Part shown: in pieces, positions 146-57,071 of the stretch
Numbering within the stretch: the first letter of the stretch is position 1
How the letters are laid out: each line of letters begins with the position of its first letter
Assembly (NCBI GenBank): GCA_016188475.1
Contig: JACPHT010000008.1
Coordinates: forward strand, 34,489-98,488
Direction of reading: 5' to 3'
Length of the DNA stretch: 64,000 nucleotides
Source: Candidatus Uhrbacteria bacterium
GTDB taxonomy: Bacteria > Patescibacteriota > Patescibacteriia > UBA9934 > GWF2-40-263
Notes under the pieces: model-generated
The model's input: only the letters and a program-made list of their open reading frames with translations
What the model was told of the DNA's origin: nothing
The model's database searches: none
Position numbers and translations under genes: made by a program

Positions 146-1279
146 TCATGTTTTCGGCGCCCCAATATCAGCGACGTTTACAACAGCTTGGATGCCGCTG
201 TTACGATCATTGAGCAGATTCGCGCTCTTCAATCGTTGTTCGATCACGAGTCGAGGTGACTCTGCATCCCCACCAGGGTAACGCGCAATAATGCGCGCGC
301 CAATCGCGAGTGCCATTGGTTTGCCGATTGAAACGTCTTCTGCAGAACGAAGTGTGCGACGCGGAGAAGGTCCACCCTGATCCCATGCCTGTTCGGTCGC
401 AAGAGTACGAATCTCGTTTGCGACTTGCACTATGTGAATCGCTTCAGTCTCGCTGATCTTTGTCTTACCAACAAGCCATGGAATTTCCCATTCCGGAGGC
501 GGATATGTGAACTCGTATTCTTCAACTCGATCGCCCATTGCAGAATCAAGCGACTGATTTCCGATGTATCCCGGTCCTACCGGATTGTCAGTCAGAATGA
601 AAATGAATCCTTTCAGACCGTCAATCACGATTGTTCCATCGGTTGTTGTGAACGAGTACTGACCGGTATGATCGAACAATGGATGGAACGGCCCCATGCT
701 GTGACCCATGCGCGAAAACTCATCCAAGCACACAATTGCTTTTGGCCACTGTTTGCTTGAGCGATGTTGTTCGATGAACAACATGAGGTCGCTAGGAACC
801 CACTTTGTCGAACCGTTTTCCGCTGACTCGGCCCCGAACAGATCCTTTGGTTTGAAAATTCCTGTTCCATCAACTTTGATGAACGGCACATCGCCGAGCA
901 CTTTCGCAAGAATCTGTGCGAACGTTGTTTTGCCAGAGCCTTTTGGACCGACAAGTCGAATGCTTCGACCAAAATGAATGTCAGCTTCGATAAGCACGAG
1001 AGTTTCCGGACGAATCCAGAAATCCGCGCCAAGACCTTTGCCATCAATCGAGATGATTTGCCGTTCAAGATGAACAACAACATGAGTTGGACAACGTGCA
1101 GGACCTTTCACTTCAATAAGGCTTGCCGCGAAACGCGCGTTTGCGCAGATTCGATCTGCGAACGATTCAAGATTTCTCACTTCGACTTTTCCCGCGCTCT
1201 TACCGCTTGCGAGAGTTGGTGTGACTGTTCCGTCTTGATCTACGAAAACGACTTCGTATTCTGTCCCGATTGTTGTCAT
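146..1279 (-). CDS. AAA+ ATPase, MoxR/AAA_5 (McrB/CbbQ-like) family with ~110-aa N-terminal extension
   Basis: Walker A LVGPKGSGKTT and Walker B IVCLDEF. C-terminal AAA-lid-like region. GC-rich codon usage unlike host genes. Same strand as and downstream of the retron-type RT. Confidence 0.6.
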   Translation of the reverse strand: MTTIGTEYEVVFVDQDGTVTPTLASGKSAGKVEVRNLESFADRICANARFAASLIEVKGPARCPTHVVVHLERQIISIDGKGLGADFWIRPETLVLIEADIHFGRSIRLVGPKGSGKTTFAQILAKVLGDVPFIKVDGTGIFKPKDLFGAESAENGSTKWVPSDLMLFIEQHRSSKQWPKAIVCLDEFSRMGHSMGPFHPLFDHTGQYSFTTTDGTIVIDGLKGFIFILTDNPVGPGYIGNQSLDSAMGDRVEEYEFTYPPPEWEIPWLVGKTKISETEAIHIVQVANEIRTLATEQAWDQGGPSPRRTLRSAEDVSIGKPMALAIGARIIARYPGGDAESPRLVIEQRLKSANLLNDRNSGIQAVVNVADIGAPKT

Positions 1280-2010: not shown

Positions 2011-3270
2011 TTATTCCGTTTCCTTAACGAACGAATACGCATGACCTTGACTTATGTCACGAGTTCCAATTCGGAACTGTGTTTTTGCTTTGATGTACAA
2101 CTCGCGGATCGAGCTCGGAAGCTTCTGGTCGTACACCATACTAACGAATCCAACTATCCCGACTAGCAAGCGATGTTCGCGCGTTGTCAAAGGCCACTCG
2201 CGAGCATAAAACTTGTCTGGTGAAAGGTTCGAGTCAAGACTGATTCCTCTTTTCCTGAATGCTACGACATCCTTTTCCATCTGTGCTTTAACAGCCTTGA
2301 GAGCTTCTTCATCACCAGATTGACGCTTGTCTGCAACCTCCAAGAGATTGTGCAGAATCGCGCGGAACTTATTCAACCGCGGTCGCGGAATCGTCAGCCG
2401 GCCGTCCTGATTCGGGATGATTCCCGTAACTTCAGGATACTTCGTTGTCCGTTCTTCGTCACCTTCAGCGCCATCACCAAAGTAAGAAACCTTCGTGCCC
2501 TGAATGGTCCAACCATCAGACCTCACAGCCTGACGAATTTTCTGACGAAGCTTTTTTGGTATCACTTCATCGCTTGAAGAGATTGTGAGATCGTCAACAA
2601 ACCGAGTGTACTTGTAAACTACTCCTTCAGTCGCAGAAGCTGATCGAAGAAGTTGCGAGATGTTTCGATCGACTTGTCCCAGCAGAACATTGAGCACTGC
2701 TGGAGAAGTTGGAAATCCCTGCGGAAGAACATCGTCAACGATGAGCAGATCAACGAAAGTCTCTGCCAGTCGTTTTCCATCCTGTTCTGGAAGACCAGTC
2801 ACAACAGTGATGTAACCAGTGAACGTTGGTCCGAAAATCGCGGAACATCGCTTGCGATTCACTGTCGGAAACGCGTCCTTGAGATCAAGAAGATAAAACG
2901 CTTTCCCGCCCACATGCGCGCGAGCGTTTGTCACGATACTCGTTCCAGGATGTGCCCCATGAACAGCCAAGTGAACCGGAATCCCTTGAATGAACTGCGT
3001 CAAAAGCGCGCGAAGAACTTTCTTGAGCGGATCTGACGGAGCGTGAATCGTCCTGTGTCCCTTTTTCTTGGGAATCTTGTGAATCGTCCACGCATTGCCA
3101 GATGCCCACAAAGCTGTTGTGGCTCTCCATTCTGCTGGATCGATTTTTAGGATTTGACACAAGACTTCTTCAAGTCGTGCGTCAAGAAGAAAAGAAATTG
3201 GTAACCTGCTTTGTTCTGCCATTGTCTCCCCCGTCTGTTTCAGACAGTTGAAGTAATTCCAACGAACCAA
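2011..3270 (-). CDS. Reverse transcriptase, retron-type. Likely true start is the M of MAEQSRLP at about 3222.
   Basis: Motif 1-2 KKGHRTIHAPSDPLKKV. NAxxH box (TNARAH) before YLLDLKDAFPTV. Motif 4 LPQGFPTSP. Motif 5 YTRFVDDLTIS (YxDD). VTG motif (YPEVTGIIP) about 65 aa after YxDD. Block-by-block similarity to my recollection of Ec86 RT. GC-rich. Confidence 0.8.
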   Translation of the reverse strand: MVRWNYFNCLKQTGETMAEQSRLPISFLLDARLEEVLCQILKIDPAEWRATTALWASGNAWTIHKIPKKKGHRTIHAPSDPLKKVLRALLTQFIQGIPVHLAVHGAHPGTSIVTNARAHVGGKAFYLLDLKDAFPTVNRKRCSAIFGPTFTGYITVVTGLPEQDGKRLAETFVDLLIVDDVLPQGFPTSPAVLNVLLGQVDRNISQLLRSASATEGVVYKYTRFVDDLTISSSDEVIPKKLRQKIRQAVRSDGWTIQGTKVSYFGDGAEGDEERTTKYPEVTGIIPNQDGRLTIPRPRLNKFRAILHNLLEVADKRQSGDEEALKAVKAQMEKDVVAFRKRGISLDSNLSPDKFYAREWPLTTREHRLLVGIVGFVSMVYDQKLPSSIRELYIKAKTQFRIGTRDISQGHAYSFVKETE

Positions 3271-3936: not shown

Positions 3937-4010
3937 TCCCGGGTCGTCTAATGGCAGGACATGGGCCTTTGAAGCCCAGTATCGTGGTTCGAATCCACGC
4001 CTGGGAACCA
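3937..4010 (+). tRNA. tRNA-Gln (anticodon TTG)
   Basis: Cloverleaf folded by eye. Acceptor tcccggg/cctggga. Anticodon stem tgggc/gccca with loop ctttgaa. T-loop ttcgaat. 3' CCA encoded. Confidence 0.8.
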
Positions 4011-4069
4011 TAAAACCTCTAGAATTGGATGCATTACGAAGCGAAAGTGACGCAACAATTCTGGAGGTT

Positions 4070-4984
4070 TTATACTTTCAAGTACTTCCTCATTGCCAAT
4101 CCTGTCGAAAACAAAGTCAACAAAACCAAACCAACAAACTCCAGACCAAAAATCATCAAACCGTTTTGTTCAAAATAATTCACAAGACCGATTGACTCGC
4201 CACCAATAAAAAATCCGAACTTCGGTTCAAATATCGCGATCAACGGATACACAATCAATAGAATTACAAAAATCGAAATCAGACTTAACAAAATCATCTC
4301 AAGAAAAAACGGTGCACGTACAAAACGGTCAGAAGCGCCGACGAGTTTCATGATTCCAATTTCTTCCCTGTGGATAAAGATGCTCATGCGAACGGTATTA
4401 AACACGATCAAAATTGCAATCAGCAAAAATATCACACTTAACGCAACTCCAAATGTGCGAACGCGATCGGTTGTGTTTTTGATTCTTGTCACAACATCCG
4501 AATAATTTGAAAAATCTTTTTGGCGAATAGAATCACTGAATTTCGGATTTTCAAGCGCTTTCAAAATAAAATCAAAATCTGAAACATTCTGTGCTTTAAC
4601 AATCAAAGATGGTCCAAAAGGATTGCCACCTATTTCTTCAAGTGAAGCAACTATTGCCTCGTCTTGTTTATGGATCAAAATGAATCTATCCAACGATTCT
4701 TGCGCGCTGACAGTTTGAACGTCTTTAACTTGTGAGAGTGATCTTAAATAATCGACAGCATTATCAATGGTTGTTTGCGGAGCTGACCCGTGAAAATAAA
4801 CGGAAATTTCTACACGATCTTCAATAGTTTGAATTGCTTGATTGGTTACAAAATTCAAAATGATCAAAATGTTTACAGTGAGAAGCGTCATCACAAGCAT
4901 CGTGATTGTGATAACTGATAACCAAAAATTTCTCCAAAAATTTTGAAAAGCAAATTTTGTGACTCGATAAGTTGATATAAACAT
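4070..4984 (-). CDS. ftsX: Cell division permease FtsX-like
   Basis: N-terminal cytoplasmic segment, TM, large extracellular loop and C-terminal 3 TM. Adjacent to ftsE. Confidence 0.7.
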   Translation of the reverse strand: MFISTYRVTKFAFQNFWRNFWLSVITITMLVMTLLTVNILIILNFVTNQAIQTIEDRVEISVYFHGSAPQTTIDNAVDYLRSLSQVKDVQTVSAQESLDRFILIHKQDEAIVASLEEIGGNPFGPSLIVKAQNVSDFDFILKALENPKFSDSIRQKDFSNYSDVVTRIKNTTDRVRTFGVALSVIFLLIAILIVFNTVRMSIFIHREEIGIMKLVGASDRFVRAPFFLEMILLSLISIFVILLIVYPLIAIFEPKFGFFIGGESIGLVNYFEQNGLMIFGLEFVGLVLLTLFSTGLAMRKYLKV

Positions 4985-24961: not shown

Positions 24962-25091
24962 AAAAGTATTAATTAGATATTTAGAATTATTGATATTATT
25001 TTATCATTTTTGAAAATAAACAGCGAAACATTATCCACAACATCTGGATTTGTGATATTCTAAATTCTGTTGAGACCTATGCAAAACTCCC

Positions 25092-25171
25092 AATTATTGC
25101 CTGAGCCTGTCGAAGGCAGTAGATCAATTAGCCAAATTTTACCCATTCGACAAGCTCAGGGAATAAAATTT
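25092..25171. repeat. Complete palindromic copy of the ATTGCCTGAGC...GTCGAAGGC family
   Basis: Arms cctgagcctgtcgaagg / cattcgacaagctcagg. Confidence 0.75.
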
Positions 25172-25225
25172 GGCATTTAATTCGAGTTTTGCAGATGTCT
25201 CTGTTCAAACATTTCCGACCTTTTA

Positions 25226-36838: not shown

Positions 36839-39028
36839 CTATATCTTCATCTTTTTTAGTCTGAGCGAATTCAACACAACTGAAATTGACGAAAACGCCA
36901 TCGCGGCTGAAGCGATAACTGGATTTAATAATCCAAGCGCGGCAAGTGGAATACCAATCACGTTATAAATAAACGCCCAAAATAAATTTTGTTTGATTGT
37001 TCTGTTTGTGCGACGCGAAATTTCGATTGCTTGAATAACTTTTTCTGGTCCGCCGCCAACAAGAACAATTTGTCCTGCTTCAATCGCAATATCCGTTCCA
37101 CTTCCAACCGCGATTCCAAGATCAGCTTGAGTGAGCGCTGGCGCATCATTGATTCCATCTCCAACAAAAGCGACTTTCTGTCCTTTGTTTTGCGCGTCTT
37201 TCACAATCTCGAGTTTTTGATCAGGAAACACTTGCGATCGAACATCTTCAATTCCAAGTTGTCGCGCGATCGCTTCGGCTGTTTGTTTTTGATCGCCGGT
37301 AATCATCACAACACCGATTCCTTTTTGTTTAAGTCTTTCAATCGTTTCTTTCGCGTTTGGTTTCACAGCATCAGCAATTCCAATCACGCCAATCGCCTGC
37401 AAGTCTCGTGCAACAATTACAACTGTCTTCCCTTCTTCGGAAAGTTTTGAAATTGTTTGATGTAAAATCGGTGATACGACGACACCAAGCTCATCCATCC
37501 ACCTTGATTGACCAACGCGAATCATTGTTTCACCAACACGAGCTTCTATTCCTTTTCCTGTTACAGAACGAAAATCTTTCACCGTTTCAATGGAAATTTT
37601 TTCATCGTTCGCTTTCATAACAACCGCGTGCGCAAGCGGATGTTCAGAAAGCGATTCAACCCCTGCCGCAACACGCAAAACCTCTTGCTCATTTTGACCT
37701 TCTATCGCAACAAGATCCGTAACAACTGGTTTCCCAATTGTGAGCGTTCCTGTTTTATCAAACATGACGACATTTAGTGTTCGACCACGCTCAAGAGCTT
37801 CCCCACTTTTAATCAGAATTCCCATTTGAGCTCCGCGACCGGTTCCAACCAAAATCGCGGTCGGAGTAGCAAGACCAAGCGCACACGGACACGCGATCAC
37901 GAGCACTGCCACAGCCGCGATAAGCGACATCGCAATACCACCGGTTACAAAGAACCAAATTATGAAAGTTAAAATCGCTATTCCAATCACTGCCTGAACA
38001 AACACCGCTGACACACGATCAACAAGTTTTTGAATTGGAGCTTTTTTCTGCTGTGCCTCTTTCACAAGCCTGACAATCTGCGCGAGAACCGTGTCACTGC
38101 TTTCTTTTTCAACCTCAACTGTCAAAGCGCCTTGTTGATTCAGTGTCGCGCCGTAAACAAGATCGCCTACTTTTTTTGAAACAGGCAAACTCTCGCCTGT
38201 TAGCATTGATTCATCAACTGACGAAGCGCCGTCTTTAATTGTTCCATCAATAGGAATCTTCTCGCCAGGCTTCACAAGAACAATATCGCCTTTTTTGAGC
38301 GACTCAATCGGAACGTCTTCTGTACTTCCATCCAACGATCGCTTATGCGCAAATTTTGCCCCAAGTTCGAGCAATTTTTGAATCGCGGCGCTTGCCTGAC
38401 CTTTACTTCTGGCTTCCAAATATCGTCCAATCAAAATAAAGGCAGTTATGATCGCAGCGGTTTCAAAATACTTTGGCTGATTTACCGCAAATGCCCACCA
38501 ACTCAATGCGAGAGCGGCGAGCGTTCCAAGCGAAATGAGAGAATCCATGCTAGCGGTTTTGCGCAACATTTGTTGAAAAGCCGCCTTGTGAAAAACCATT
38601 CCGGTTCCAAGAACAACATAAGTTCCGCCGATTGCTTCAATCCAATTTGAAATCTGTTCGCCGAAAATTTCAGGTCCAAATTTCAAACGCGCTGTTGCGA
38701 TTATCAAAACCGGTAACGCAACAACACTCGCTACAATAGCTCGAGTCAATACTTCTTTTTCTGATCCATGCGCGTGCTGTTCATGCTGTTCACCATGTTC
38801 TTCATGTTCCATGTGTTGTTCCATTTGTCGAACACGGTAACCTTCTTTTTGCACGATTTGATGAAGCGCGTGTTCTTGCACTTTCTCTGGATCAAACTCA
38901 ATTGTTGCTTCAGCAAGCGCATAATTCACATTCGCGCTTTGCACGCCTTCTGTTTTTTTGAACGCGGCTTCGATTCGAATCGCGCACGACGCGCAGTGCA
39001 TTCCGTCAATGTTGAATGTTGATTTCAT
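36839..39028 (-). CDS. copA: Copper-translocating P-type ATPase. The ORF track gives 39040 with a TTG start.
   Basis: N-terminal [15 protein letters not shown]. His-rich segment. [18 protein letters not shown]. Confidence 0.9.
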
Positions 39029-39047
39029 AAAAATAGTCAATGAAGTC

Positions 39048-39230
39048 TATGGACACCACATTACGAAACCGCACTTAGAAGGATGAAAAATGAGTAAGAT
39101 ACGAAGTTTTGGAGCGTGGAAAAATTTGAGCCGTATCCATAGATACGGTGAGAAATTTTCCACGCGAAAAACAAGCAGATTACCATTTTTCATTCTTTAT
39201 GGAGTGCGGAGTCATAATGTGATGTCCATA
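39048..39230. repeat. ~185-bp element with ~45-bp imperfect terminal inverted repeats (tatggacaccacattacgaaaccgcacttagaaggatgaaaaatg / inverted) around a conserved structured core at 39103-39174
   Basis: Core shared with 46352-46425, with compensatory changes in two stems. Confidence 0.7.
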
Positions 39231-39279
39231 AGTAGTCAATGGAGTCAAGTAAGTAAAATGGGTAAATGAGGAAAACAAA

Positions 39280-39648
39280 TTATTTATACTTTGATAATTC
39301 AATCAGATGAGCGTTGATACCAGCCAGCAATCCGTTATATCTATAAGTCAGACGTTCCAATTCTTCAGAAGATAAATAATTTAATCTTGATGAAGTAAAT
39401 AAAAGGGATACCACTTCATGGATTGATCCTCGCGCGATTATATAGAAACGGATGAATTCCTTAATCCCACCCCTTCCCATACCCTCCGCGATATTTTATG
39501 GAACAGATACTGCTGCACGACGTATTTGTGAAGTTAATCCATATATTTCTTCTTTTGGAAAAGAAGAAGTTATATTGTACACCTCTTCAACCAAACTCTG
39601 TGCCTCATTCCAAGTTCGTAATTCATGAAACGATCTTATTTTTTCCAT
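39280..39648 (-). pseudogene. Four-helix-bundle protein (23S rRNA IVS protein family) with an in-frame TAA (39496-39498) where the family has a conserved Ser (AAVS(I/V)P-S-NIAEG)
   Basis: Translation MEKIRSFHELRTWNEAQSLVEEVYNITSSFPKEEIYGLTSQIRRAAVSVP*NIAEGMGRGGIKEFIRFYIIARGSIHEV... stays in the same frame across the stop. Confidence 0.5.
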
Positions 39649-45674: not shown

Positions 45675-45845
45675 CTGTAGTAGCAGTTGTGCCATGTTGG
45701 AGTGAGTCAAGGAGGAGTAAAGAAGCCAACTGCTTGGCTTCGTACCTCCGAGACGGGTTGAACGATGTCTGGCTGAAAGCCAGACCGGACAACACCTACG
45801 GCGAAGAGTCCGTTGGCACGGAAACATGGTACGACTGCTACTAAT
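45675..45845. repeat. ~170-nt element closed by a 20-bp terminal stem (agtagcagttgtgccatgtt / aacatggtacgactgctact), containing the gtctggc-tgaaa-gccagac hairpin. A short relative lies at 49912-49985.
   Basis: Shared 3' block CGGCGAAGAGTCCGTTGGCACGGARACATGGTAC. Confidence 0.65.
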
Positions 45846-45857
45846 AACCAATGACTT

Positions 45858-46298
45858 ATGATTTATCTTCCTCTAATTTTAATTCCAGCGATCTTCGTCC
45901 TCTTCACTTTTCTAAAACCAAAAGTTAAAGGTATTGAATTGTGTGGGGTCTGCGCCGCTGTTAGCATCACTTGGCTGATTCTTTTGATTTCTGTTTTTGT
46001 TCTAATCGTTCCAGTTTCACCACTCCTCATCGGAATTCTAATGGGAATGAGCGTGATCGGCGGACTTTCAAAAGCAGAACCGTGGCTCAAAAAACAAAAT
46101 GTACAACATATTCCGCTTATAAAAATTATCGTGATACTCGGCGGACTTTATACTGTTTTGTTCTTGATTGAACAGCAATGGCGTTTGCTGATAATCACAA
46201 TTATAATTTCGATTTTCGCACTCATTATAATTACGCTTCTCATGCAAAAAAGATCGCATAGACATTTGGAAGGACAGAAACATTTAGATTGTTGTTAA
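45858..46298 (+). CDS. Membrane protein (4 TM), hypothetical
   Basis: Hydrophobic profile. Confidence 0.4.
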   Translation: MIYLPLILIPAIFVLFTFLKPKVKGIELCGVCAAVSITWLILLISVFVLIVPVSPLLIGILMGMSVIGGLSKAEPWLKKQNVQHIPLIKIIVILGGLYTVLFLIEQQWRLLIITIIISIFALIIITLLMQKRSHRHLEGQKHLDCC

Positions 46299-46475
46299 AA
46301 TAGACCCCACAAAAAACAGGATTTAGAAATAAGACAAAATTGCGCAAGACGCAGTTTTGGAGCATTGAAAAACCACAGCGGTATCCGTAGATACCGTGAG
46401 GATTTTTCAAGGTGAAAAACAAGTCCTGCACGATTTTGGCTGTTTATCGAGTCCTGTTTTTTGTGGGGTCTATTT
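46297..46475. repeat. ~180-nt element with 24-bp perfect terminal inverted repeats AAATAGACCCCACAAAAAACAGGA / TCCTGTTTTTTGTGGGGTCTATTT, carrying the same structured core as 39103-39174
   Basis: Seen directly. Confidence 0.75.
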
Positions 46476-46514
46476 AAAAAGTCGCTTGGCATTGAAACCA
46501 AGCGACCAGAGACA

Positions 46515-49911: not shown

Positions 49912-49985
49912 GAGCGGTTTGTGCCATGTCGTAGTGAACAACGGCGAAGAGTCCGTTGGCACGGAGACATGGTACAAACCGCTCC
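49912..49985. repeat. Short hairpin member of the 45675 family (stem gagcggtttgtgccatgtc / gacatggtacaaaccgctc)
   Basis: Seen directly. Confidence 0.65.
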
Positions 49986-55330: not shown

Positions 55331-55538
55331 ATGAAATTACCGAAGAAATCGTACTCCGTTTACCAACTTTTTTCAAATGGAACAAACGTTATGAAACCGA
55401 ATTTAAGTCGCCGATGGTTTGACAATGTTGGTCATCTTGGAGCGAGAAATTTATGAAACGTAACCGTAGCTACGTTGAGTAAATTTCTTGGGAAAGATGG
55501 CCAATATTGGCAAATCCAGCAAGACTTGGAGTGCGGCT

Positions 55539-57071
55539 TCATAACGTTTGTTCCATAGGTTTGCCTTCTTCAAACCCAGACGAGGTTTGCACGCCAACAA
55601 CTACGTTTTGAAAAAACATTTCTAAATTTGAAACGCCAGAATAAGTGCACGCGCTTCGCAAACCAGCAGTGATTTCATCCAAAATATCTTCAGCACTTTC
55701 CTGTCCAGATTTCAAATACATTTTTGATTGACTCACACCTTCTTCAAAAAACGTTCGACGTGCGATTTCAAACGGATCCAATTGGCGACTTCGATCCAAC
55801 ACCGCGCGACTCGAAGCCATTCCAAATTGTTCCTTAAACAAATTTCCATCTGAATCGCGTTGAACATCGGCCGGGCTTTCAAATGTCCCAACAAACCAAG
55901 AGCCAAACATTGCGTGACTCGCGCCTGCCGCAAGCGCCAAAACAACGTCGCGGGGAGATCGAACACCTCCATCAGCCCAAACCTGTGCTCCGCGATTTCT
56001 AGCGATAGCTGACACTCGATGTACGGCAGAAAACTGAGGCCGGCCGACTCCTGTTGTCATGCGTGTTTTGCATGCGGCTCCAGGGCCAACTCCGACTTTC
56101 AAAATATTGGCGCCGGCTTCAATAAAATCATCAGCGGCAACGGCGGTTACGATATTTCCTGCGGCCAAAGGTTTGTCAGAACCCAAAATCGCGCGAGTCG
56201 TTCGAATCGCATCAAGCATTTGTTTTTGATGACCATGGGCCGTATCAAGAACAATCACATCAACTCCGATTTGAATCAACCGATCAACAGTATCTGCAAC
56301 GCGATCGCGAACACGCACAGCAACACACGTCATCAGTTCACTTTTTGTGTTCAAGGCAGGCTGATACATTGTCGCGCGAACTGCTCCTTTTCGCGTCATC
56401 ACCCCAGCAAGTGTGCCATCTGGATGAATTACAGGAACGATGGATAATCGACGCTCCGTAAGAAAATGAAAAATTTCTTTTGGTAACATCGTGCTTGAGA
56501 CGCTGATCAGTTGACGAGTCATTACGTCTCCAAGACGTGAATACCGATCGCGACGGTACGAATCCTTTTCAGTAAAAATTCCAACCGGACGATTGTTGTC
56601 GTCAGTAATAACAACAGCTTCATGCGAACGTTTGTGAATCAAGTTGAGCGCTGTTTGAACAGACTGATCTTCTTTCAATACAACAGGCGTTTCATAAACA
56701 TGATGACACTGCTTCACATATCGAACAATATCCTCGATTCGCTCAAATGGAATGTCTTGAGGTAACACGACTAGGCCGCCGCGACGCGTAACTGTTTCGG
56801 CCATGCGTTTACCGGCAACTGCTGTCATGTTTGAAACAACTATTGGAATTTTCGTTCCAAGATTTCCAACAGGAGTCAAATCAACATCCATTCGAGATTG
56901 AATTTCAGAATACAATGGCATTAAAAAAACGTCGTTATAAGTGAGCTCTTTTTGTTCATCTTCAGGTCGCAAGAATCGCATAGAACTCCAGCTTACAACA
57001 AGAATAAAAAAAGCGCATCCTTGTTTGAATGCGCAGTTAGAACTACTGGACAATGAGATGATCCGACTCAA
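55539..57071 (-). CDS. guaB: IMP dehydrogenase family (start probably MRFLRPED; N-terminal extension doubtful)
   Basis: GVGPGAACKTR catalytic loop. CBS pair. TIM barrel. Confidence 0.75.
   Translation of the reverse strand: MSRIISLSSSSNCAFKQGCAFFILVVSWSSMRFLRPEDEQKELTYNDVFLMPLYSEIQSRMDVDLTPVGNLGTKIPIVVSNMTAVAGKRMAETVTRRGGLVVLPQDIPFERIEDIVRYVKQCHHVYETPVVLKEDQSVQTALNLIHKRSHEAVVITDDNNRPVGIFTEKDSYRRDRYSRLGDVMTRQLISVSSTMLPKEIFHFLTERRLSIVPVIHPDGTLAGVMTRKGAVRATMYQPALNTKSELMTCVAVRVRDRVADTVDRLIQIGVDVIVLDTAHGHQKQMLDAIRTTRAILGSDKPLAAGNIVTAVAADDFIEAGANILKVGVGPGAACKTRMTTGVGRPQFSAVHRVSAIARNRGAQVWADGGVRSPRDVVLALAAGASHAMFGSWFVGTFESPADVQRDSDGNLFKEQFGMASSRAVLDRSRQLDPFEIARRTFFEEGVSQSKMYLKSGQESAEDILDEITAGLRSACTYSGVSNLEMFFQNVVVGVQTSSGFEEGKPMEQTL

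Follow-up and report, generated by a model that had tools for sequence, protein, structure and literature searches.

The hairpin-forming locus that lies 8-20 nt upstream of the copA start in the 64,000-nt stretch of a Candidatus Uhrbacteria genome analyzed here (the window) is probably a non-autonomous, non-coding, MITE-like palindromic mobile element that has spread within and between genomes of CPR/Patescibacteria. Its copies are dispersed among unrelated housekeeping genes. They have sharp ends at the hairpin base, with which the insertions of copies 1 and 3 coincide precisely, and the stem is maintained along its whole length by compensatory base changes. Most of what is known of the small genomes of CPR/Patescibacteria comes from metagenomes, and our literature search returned neither a treatment of their small mobile repeats in general nor a description of repeats of this kind in these organisms.

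Three copies of one hairpin element in the window

The initial annotation of this DNA had described two loci, at 39048-39230 and 46297-46475, that share a core of about 70 nt, and the sequence agrees: copies 1 and 2 have AGTTTTGGAGC in common, followed by an apical hairpin (GTATCCATAGATAC or GTATCCGTAGATAC), GTGAG and GAAAAACAAG. The paired substitutions that had been quoted for the inner hairpin (ccgtatc/gatacgg versus cggtatc/gataccg) and for the outer stem (cgtggaaaa/ttttccacg versus ttgaaaaa/tttttcaa) are likewise real. The first locus was placed correctly, but its bounds took in one flanking nucleotide at either end, the unit itself being 39049-39229. The count of two has to be corrected to three. 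The third copy, at 55377-55556, was revealed when the window was scanned with a 20-nt apex pattern, which at up to three mismatches gave three matches compared with 0.01 expected by chance. An nhmmer search with all filters switched off detected copy 1 with E = 3e-43 and copy 2 with E = 3e-44 and no copy beyond these three in the window. The three diverged copies fall inside 17 kb. Their positions and those of their conserved parts and immediate neighbors are listed in Table 1.

Table 1. Features of the hairpin element and of its surroundings in the window
Feature	Position	Strand	Remarks
Copy 1	39049-39229	+	181-nt hairpin element; T39048 and A39230 flank
Copy 2	46300-46473	+	174 nt; palindrome reaches 46296-46477 via flanking TTAAA
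Copy 3	55377-55556	+	180 nt; overlooked in the initial annotation
Lower internal loop of copy 1, 5' arm UUAG	39075-39078	+	opposite AUGGAGU 39199-39205
Conserved unpaired UUGGAGC of copy 1	39109-39115	+	5' side, upper internal loop; alignments A3/A4
Apical stem-loop of copy 1, GTATC-CATA-GATAC, then GGTGAG	39133-39152	+	pairs 89:106, 90:105 and 94:101 covary
GAAAAAC of copy 1, partner of UUGGAGC	39166-39172		opposite side of upper internal loop
17-nt near-repeat, left, AAATAGTCAATGAAGTC	39031-39047	+	right copy 39230-39246
CopA-type P-type ATPase	36839-39040	-	Pfam E1-E2_ATPase 1e-59, HMA, Hydrolase
23S rRNA-intervening-sequence protein (IVP, four-helix bundle), fragment	39280-39480	-	PF05635 2.3e-9, positions 51-105/106

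Copies 1 and 2 each fold into one long hairpin with minimum free energies of -88.7 kcal/mol (z = -15.9) and -85.8 kcal/mol (z = -12.0), respectively, and in neither case was any of 200 shuffled sequences as good. Copy 3 reaches -92.3 kcal/mol (z = -12.4). It had been proposed that the shared core is embedded in a different terminal inverted repeat at each locus. Alignment leads to another conclusion, as the arms of the three copies are diverged versions of one sequence (e.g., ATGGACACCACATTACGAAACCG versus ATGGAACAAACGTTATGAAACCG), with ATAGACCTCACACTATGAAACAGGACTTAG as the consensus of the family. Copy 2 belongs to the same subfamily as the copies in the Uhrbacteria MAG JACQXU01, with which it shares 82-88% identity.

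The family in CPR/Patescibacteria

Pattern scans for further copies, as the initial annotation had proposed, yielded 33 loci outside the window, all of them in CPR/Patescibacteria-type MAGs or metagenomes. With the pattern TTGGAGC-N12-22-GTANCCNTAGNTACNNTGAG and one genome per GTDB species, 15 loci were retrieved from GTDB, seven of them in a single MAG (JACQXU01), whose copies are 90-97% identical, and one each in another Uhrbacteria, a Saccharibacteria, a Yanofskybacteria and the unclassified MAG DeMMO2_27; the same pattern retrieved 18 loci from metagenomes. The remaining four GTDB loci (L002, L006, L010 and L015) reside in two MAGs labeled 'uncultured Gammaproteobacteria'. Judging from protein similarity, this label looks wrong, because the nearest named homologues of the phosphomannomutase encoded at L002 stem from Parcubacteria, Patescibacteria and DPANN archaea (Woesearchaeota). 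The pattern had no match in viral contigs, and blastn against plasmid and phage collections gave none either; an origin from phages or plasmids was discarded.

All GTDB and metagenome matches sit at the tip of a hairpin of about 180 nt. The unit measures 180±1 nt in some 22 of the 24 intact copies, and this length holds even with the strongly deviating arms of L007, L022 and L033. The scan pattern itself is not invariant in the family, since nhmmer picked up an extra copy with a mutated loop (CAGTAG). No reading frame is conserved among the aligned copies. When the window was compared with Rfam, only tRNAs were found at gathering scores and only spurious plant microRNA-type matches, far under threshold, in a lax search; membership in a known RNA family was rejected. 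Taken together, the element is small, non-coding, bounded by terminal inverted repeats, present in many copies, dispersed and precisely inserted relative to empty sites, and the designation 'MITE-like hairpin element' given at the outset is thus appropriate.

The family also has a practical side, as it breaks assemblies: contigs from several metagenomes end inside copies (L025, L026, L028, L029, L034, L035, L037 and L038), among them contigs of the window's own organism at copies 1 and 2.

Compensatory changes maintain the entire stem

RNAalifold assigns 66 pairs in eight helices to an alignment (A4) of 25 distinct intact copies, and 51 of these pairs have changed on both sides, which bears out on a broad basis what had been proposed from two copies, namely that the helices are kept by paired substitutions. 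The helices are also preserved in the additional copies, with standard pairs in 93.6% of the stem cells of the 25 copies. When columns were shuffled, 72.8% of the cells paired and none of 500 shuffles reached the observed value; when partners were slid by one to three columns, pairing dropped to 36.8-47.6%. The covariation score is 0.568, compared with 0.185 in shuffles. Covariation is not confined to the core of about 70 nt but spans the full length including the middle of the arms, and the termini, ATAGAC... and ...GTCTAT, pair in at least 23 of the 25 copies; the entire element is one inverted repeat.

The balance of substitutions differs with the distance between copies. Between subfamilies, doubles that preserve the pair number 1572, those that break it 128, and single changes that break it 221. 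Within one subfamily, the one-sided departures from the consensus at paired columns are 16 breaks and 13 wobbles, and compensated doubles number 13. Young copies therefore carry raw hits, and long-lived lineages are fully compensated.

A conserved center with freely evolving ends, which a first glance at the alignment would suggest, is not borne out. Conservation of UUGGAGC and of part of the apex is forced by the search pattern, and once the 22 columns fixed in this way are excluded, 13 subfamily representatives show a mean identity of 0.54 in the rest of the core, 0.54 in the outer arms and 0.42-0.44 in the middle. The apparent conserved center is thus largely an effect of ascertainment. Three asymmetric features are kept nonetheless: an internal loop with UUAG opposite AUGGAGU, another with GGAG opposite (N)GA, and G:U wobbles at columns 32:161 (U:G in 20 of 25 copies) and 88:107. 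The columns of the GAAA partner and of UUAG/AUGGAGU lie outside the search pattern and are conserved all the same. Cells with G:U outnumber those with A:C by 93 to 30 (44 to 25 if the three conserved wobble columns are set aside), and the strand that bears TTGGAGC is the more stable one in 23 of the 25 copies (mean -94.5 versus -83.2 kcal/mol). The excess of G:U over A:C and the better fold of the sense strand suggest that the fold is under selection on one particular single strand, either RNA or ssDNA.

Readings of the GGAG...UGAG...GAAA arrangement as a kink-turn, a hammerhead, or a Shine-Dalgarno sequence with a short ORF were discarded by eye on the grounds of strand topology and loop sizes; for the last of these there is no conserved reading frame either.

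Copies 1 and 3 are precise insertions

For copy 1, the uninterrupted site is found on the contig of a relative (L048, FGGY kinase 80% identical) that contains the same block FGGY - DsbD_2 - IVP - CopA. It reads ...ATTGACTGCTT|AGACTTTATTGACT...ATG(copA) in L048 and ...ATTGACTACTT[ATGGAC..GTCCAT]AGACTTCATTGACT...ATG in the window, and the insertion is therefore exact. No family member is present in the syntenic block of L048-L050. In the sense orientation of the element the empty site is GTCT^AAGC, and a 178-nt insertion with duplication of TA and a 180-nt insertion into T^A fit equally well. The 17-nt near-repeat around copy 1 is not a target duplication, because it is already present at the empty site in L048. 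The overall similarity of flanks is significant in a permutation test (p = 0.0012) but driven by few copies, and a long target duplication of variable size, be it casposon-like (14-15 bp) or of the retro-type, was rejected on these grounds.

The uninterrupted site in L048 (7060-7130) carries tandem (T)AGACTT(C/T)ATTGACT repeats, and the same motif occurs upstream of copA in the window organism (39031-39047 and 39230-39260), where copy 1 splits the array. The repeats may be operator or promoter repeats of this copper-export gene, and the position of one copy inside a repeat-rich upstream region may bear on the regulation of copA.

In a relative (L042), the IMP-dehydrogenase-family gene (protein 94% identical) is present and the tRNA that follows it is the same, but copy 3 is absent. 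In sense orientation, the empty site is ...TTTTATCAAC|AGGCTTGCC... and the occupied one ...TTTTTTCAA[180 nt]AGGTTTGCC..., one nucleotide off a clean TA duplication. This insertion has rewritten the end of a gene: copy 3 (55539-55556) provides the IMP-dehydrogenase-family gene (GuaB1, 55539-56981(-)) with its five final codons and its TGA stop, and the protein, which ends with ...GKPVDKSW* in relatives, ends with ...GKPMEQTL* in the window at an unchanged total length of 480 aa. The displaced GuaB1 codons (...KKSW*-like, TTGAAAAAAGTTGGTAA, - strand) survive past copy 3 at 55357-55376. The GuaB1 protein of the window is 100% identical to an NCBI entry.

The empty sites are known only from relatives with 79-94% protein identity; Logan contigs of the same organism, which occurs in runs SRR12113385-419, either break inside the element or carry it. 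Across the family, 16 of 24 copies have a T before the unit and 18 of 24 an A behind it. About 70% of the copies have flanks of the T...A type, and copy 2 has TTAAA on both sides.

That contigs end within copies and that the copies of JACQXU01 are 90-97% identical are further indications of a mobile repeat. Products of decay exist as well, i.e., truncated copies (L016 and L017) and a solo arm beside yidD in L019, with no transposase gene alongside. At two loci, both on contig JACQXU010000021.1, the 3' arm is interrupted at a corresponding point by an identical, ATCG-flanked insertion of about 80 nt (L004 2021-2100 and L008 862-941), and the outer flanks of the two host copies are unrelated. 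Hairpin and insertion moved together as a composite, or else the site is the target of a third, tiny element. The nested insertion holds two small palindromes, GGATATGATTGAGTTAACTCAATCATATCC and ATCTGGGTTCCTACCCAGAT.

Gene neighborhood and orientation

Copy 1 was stated to lie between the copA start and a pseudogene for a four-helix-bundle protein, and this context is correct (Table 1). The fragment in the table represents the C-terminal half of IVP only. The IVP gene, intact with 122 aa in L048, is split here into pieces of 50 and 66 aa (upstream ORF: L034 4283-4435). The neighbors of the element are ordinary throughout (CopA ATPase, split IVP, DsbD_2, FGGY kinase, MFS transporter, IMPDH-family gene), and no transposase was seen next to it in the neighborhoods examined. 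Elements abut gene ends or overlap genes by at most 26 nt. Among loci with co-directional flanking ORFs, 12 elements are antisense and four sense, and four more are partial sense cases. In the window, copy 2 runs in the same direction as the local genes, and copies 1 and 3 run against them. Neither a sigma-70-type promoter consensus nor that of an intrinsic terminator was found in 38900-39400, and the idea of an internal promoter or terminator was dropped.

Comparison with known repeats and hairpin systems

Palindromic MITEs of bacteria are shorter than 200 bp, have terminal inverted repeats and fold into long hairpins; ERIC-type repeats are flanked by TA, and the structure of the bcr1 repeat is maintained by compensatory base changes (PMC3184786). 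The CPR element shares much with Correia/NEMIS of Neisseria and ERIC of Enterobacteriaceae, which likewise measure 100-200 bp, are non-coding, possess terminal inverted repeats with TA termini and form a hairpin from the whole element, and which are also intergenic, multicopy and variable in presence between relatives; for Correia, too, a mobilizing enzyme is not known (PMC3184786). It differs from Correia and ERIC in that there is no sequence similarity, in its host group (CPR/Patescibacteria), in its unusually constant length of 180±1 nt across subfamilies that are about 50% diverged, and in that no IHF-site or promoter consensus was found in it. Only one clean empty site of the CPR element would support a TA duplication. 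The same kind of compensatory evidence as presented here exists for bcr1 of the Bacillus cereus group. There, direct repeats of 5 bp are present and transcription is known to occur, whereas the CPR element may or may not have duplicated its target.

REPINs are also hairpin-forming, non-autonomous and multicopy, and in them the hairpin is conserved rather than the exact sequence. They are composed of two short REP palindromes separated by a variable spacer and co-occur with a RAYT gene, whereas the CPR element is a single continuous stem of about 85 bp with a conserved apex and without a RAYT gene in the neighborhoods examined. MITEs derived from IS630/Tc1-mariner elements insert at TA and have terminal inverted repeats, as is known from work on ISY100; the termini of the CPR element, in contrast, differ strongly among subfamilies. 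The attC sites of integrons are imperfect palindromes, conserved in structure more than in sequence and used as folded single strands; there, the base of the stem is conserved, the center is variable, and cassettes are arrayed with one gene each. The copies in the window, in contrast, are 7-9 kb apart among housekeeping genes.

How the element may move, and alternative explanations

The MITE-like mobile element that we favor would be moved by a trans-acting enzyme encoded elsewhere. A TA-targeting transposase of the IS630/Tc1-mariner type would be the most economical, if tentative, guess for this mobilizer. Only copies able to fold back would propagate, the fold, whether a cruciform, ssDNA or RNA, bringing the two ends together. 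Such fold-dependent propagation would explain both the almost fully compensated divergence of subfamilies and the single uncompensated hits in young copies. Transcripts reading through a copy would carry an RNA hairpin of about 80 bp in either orientation, likely as a by-product, and further by-products would be the new stop codons and C-termini exemplified by copy 3 and the splitting of the repeat region upstream of copA by copy 1.

Several observations fit a MITE of the classical type less well. The neighborhoods examined contain neither a transposase nor an autonomous partner. About 30% of the copies lack T...A flanks and copy 3 lacks a clean TA duplication. In L007, L022 and L033 the termini are quite different while the apex is the same, a situation in which a single transposase that reads the ends would struggle. 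A DDE transposase does not itself require pairing over the full length, and the G:U excess together with the stable sense strand points to a single-stranded form, for which plain cut-and-paste has no need. Neither full-length pairing nor strand asymmetry is needed for double-stranded cut-and-paste; the two features suggest that the element has to fold, as a single strand or a cruciform, in order to be propagated or retained.

The same features are what a hairpin-dependent mobilization of ssDNA would explain, with a recombinase, an IS110-type enzyme or a tyrosine HUH transposase (IS200/IS605-PATE or REPIN/RAYT-like) acting in place of a DDE cut-and-paste enzyme. The constraint on pairing extends beyond the termini to the full length, the fold is asymmetric with regard to the strands, and subfamilies whose termini are unrelated still have the apex. 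The absence of a clear target duplication would also follow; the empty sites show no duplication of at least 2 nt that could not be read as none just as well. REPINs, hairpin doublets mobilized in trans, provide a precedent. We nevertheless regard this route as unlikely: there is no conserved tetra- or pentanucleotide by the left end as in IS200/IS605 elements, REP-like sub-palindromes are absent, a Y1 or RAYT gene was not present in the neighborhoods examined, and core and termini are conserved to the same degree (0.54 each without pattern-forced columns).

The initial annotation had seen the 'classic signature' of a functional RNA in the paired substitutions. This does not follow, as the whole 180 nt covaries, and compensation alone does not show an RNA function for the host because mobile repeats of the bcr1 type also compensate (PMC3184786). 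A structured RNA selected by the host, i.e., a small RNA or a cis-acting mRNA element that is bound by a protein, has a conserved apical loop and two purine-rich internal loops, and whose dispersal is secondary, is quite unlikely in our view, even though covariation is very strong in all eight helices, the asymmetric loops (UUAG/AUGGAGU, and GAAA opposite GGAG) are kept outside the search pattern, and the conserved wobbles 32:161 and 88:107, the ratio of 93 G:U to 30 A:C and the better sense fold in 23 of 25 copies all speak for it. The element has no Rfam family and no promoter or terminator consensus, its orientation is mixed and more often antisense (12 versus 4 with co-directional neighbors), copy number varies and close relatives do without the copies, uncompensated breaks are found in young copies, and truncated and interrupted copies persist.

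A reading that we judge to be rather improbable is that of a CPR-specific element which, instead of being an ordinary transposase-driven MITE, would act in the form of folded RNA or ssDNA, and in which some enzyme would read a conserved apical module, made up of the CNUA loop, a G:U wobble and the GGAG/GA internal loop, and the arms would need only to pair. If true, it would amount to a new hairpin-templated system of mobility or processing in bacteria with very small genomes. On present evidence, the family most likely belongs with the mobile palindromic elements of the Correia/ERIC/bcr1 kind and does not establish a new principle.

There is a loose resemblance between the outer stem, with the unpaired UUAG behind it, and the a1/a2 stem with branching G of retron RNAs. 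That the element is an orphan msr/msd-like template for the retron-type reverse transcriptase present in the window (2011-3270(-)), or otherwise dependent on a reverse transcriptase, is highly improbable, as this enzyme is encoded 36 kb away next to a repeat-bearing non-coding stretch of its own, the single continuous hairpin does not resemble separate msr and msd folds, and the insertions are precise and without variable target duplications or tails; the window's enzyme is not linked to the element here, as tblastn detected no homologue of it in 325 kb of element-bearing loci.

Whatever strand is the selected one, the hairpin family, with at least 25 diverged and almost fully compensated copies, is a clean natural data set on the question of why the fold of palindromic mobile elements is preserved and which strand matters for it, and it is a handle for finding the mobilizing enzyme.

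Other features in the window

The reverse transcriptase is recognized by PADLOC (RT_XIII, 3e-44) and Pfam (RVT_1, 7.5e-14) and, below cutoff, by the NCBIfam model for the retron St85 family. It is followed on the same strand by a GC-richer, ORF-free stretch of 730 nt (1280-2010) and then by a gene for an AAA_5 ATPase (146-1279(-)). The stretch contains three repeats of about 34 nt (1582-1615, 1742-1775 and 1960-1993), each with a GCGCGTG..CACGCGC hairpin, and together with the reverse transcriptase gene it may constitute a CPR retron with an unusual, repeated non-coding RNA region.

A second, unrelated family of hairpin repeats has two members on the forward strand, at 45678-45843 and 49912-49984, which share GTGCCATGT...GGCGAAGAGTCCGTTGGCACGGARACATGGTAC and have no match in Rfam. 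The long copy is multi-branched (-87.5 kcal/mol) and the short one a simple hairpin; at the site of the latter, in the gap between the genes for thymidine kinase and DHO dehydrogenase, L048 and L049 carry unrelated sequence. Imperfect inverted repeats occur in addition at 4001-4082 (27 nt, 81% complementarity), directly after a tRNA gene, and at 25072-25201 (30 nt, 77% complementarity).
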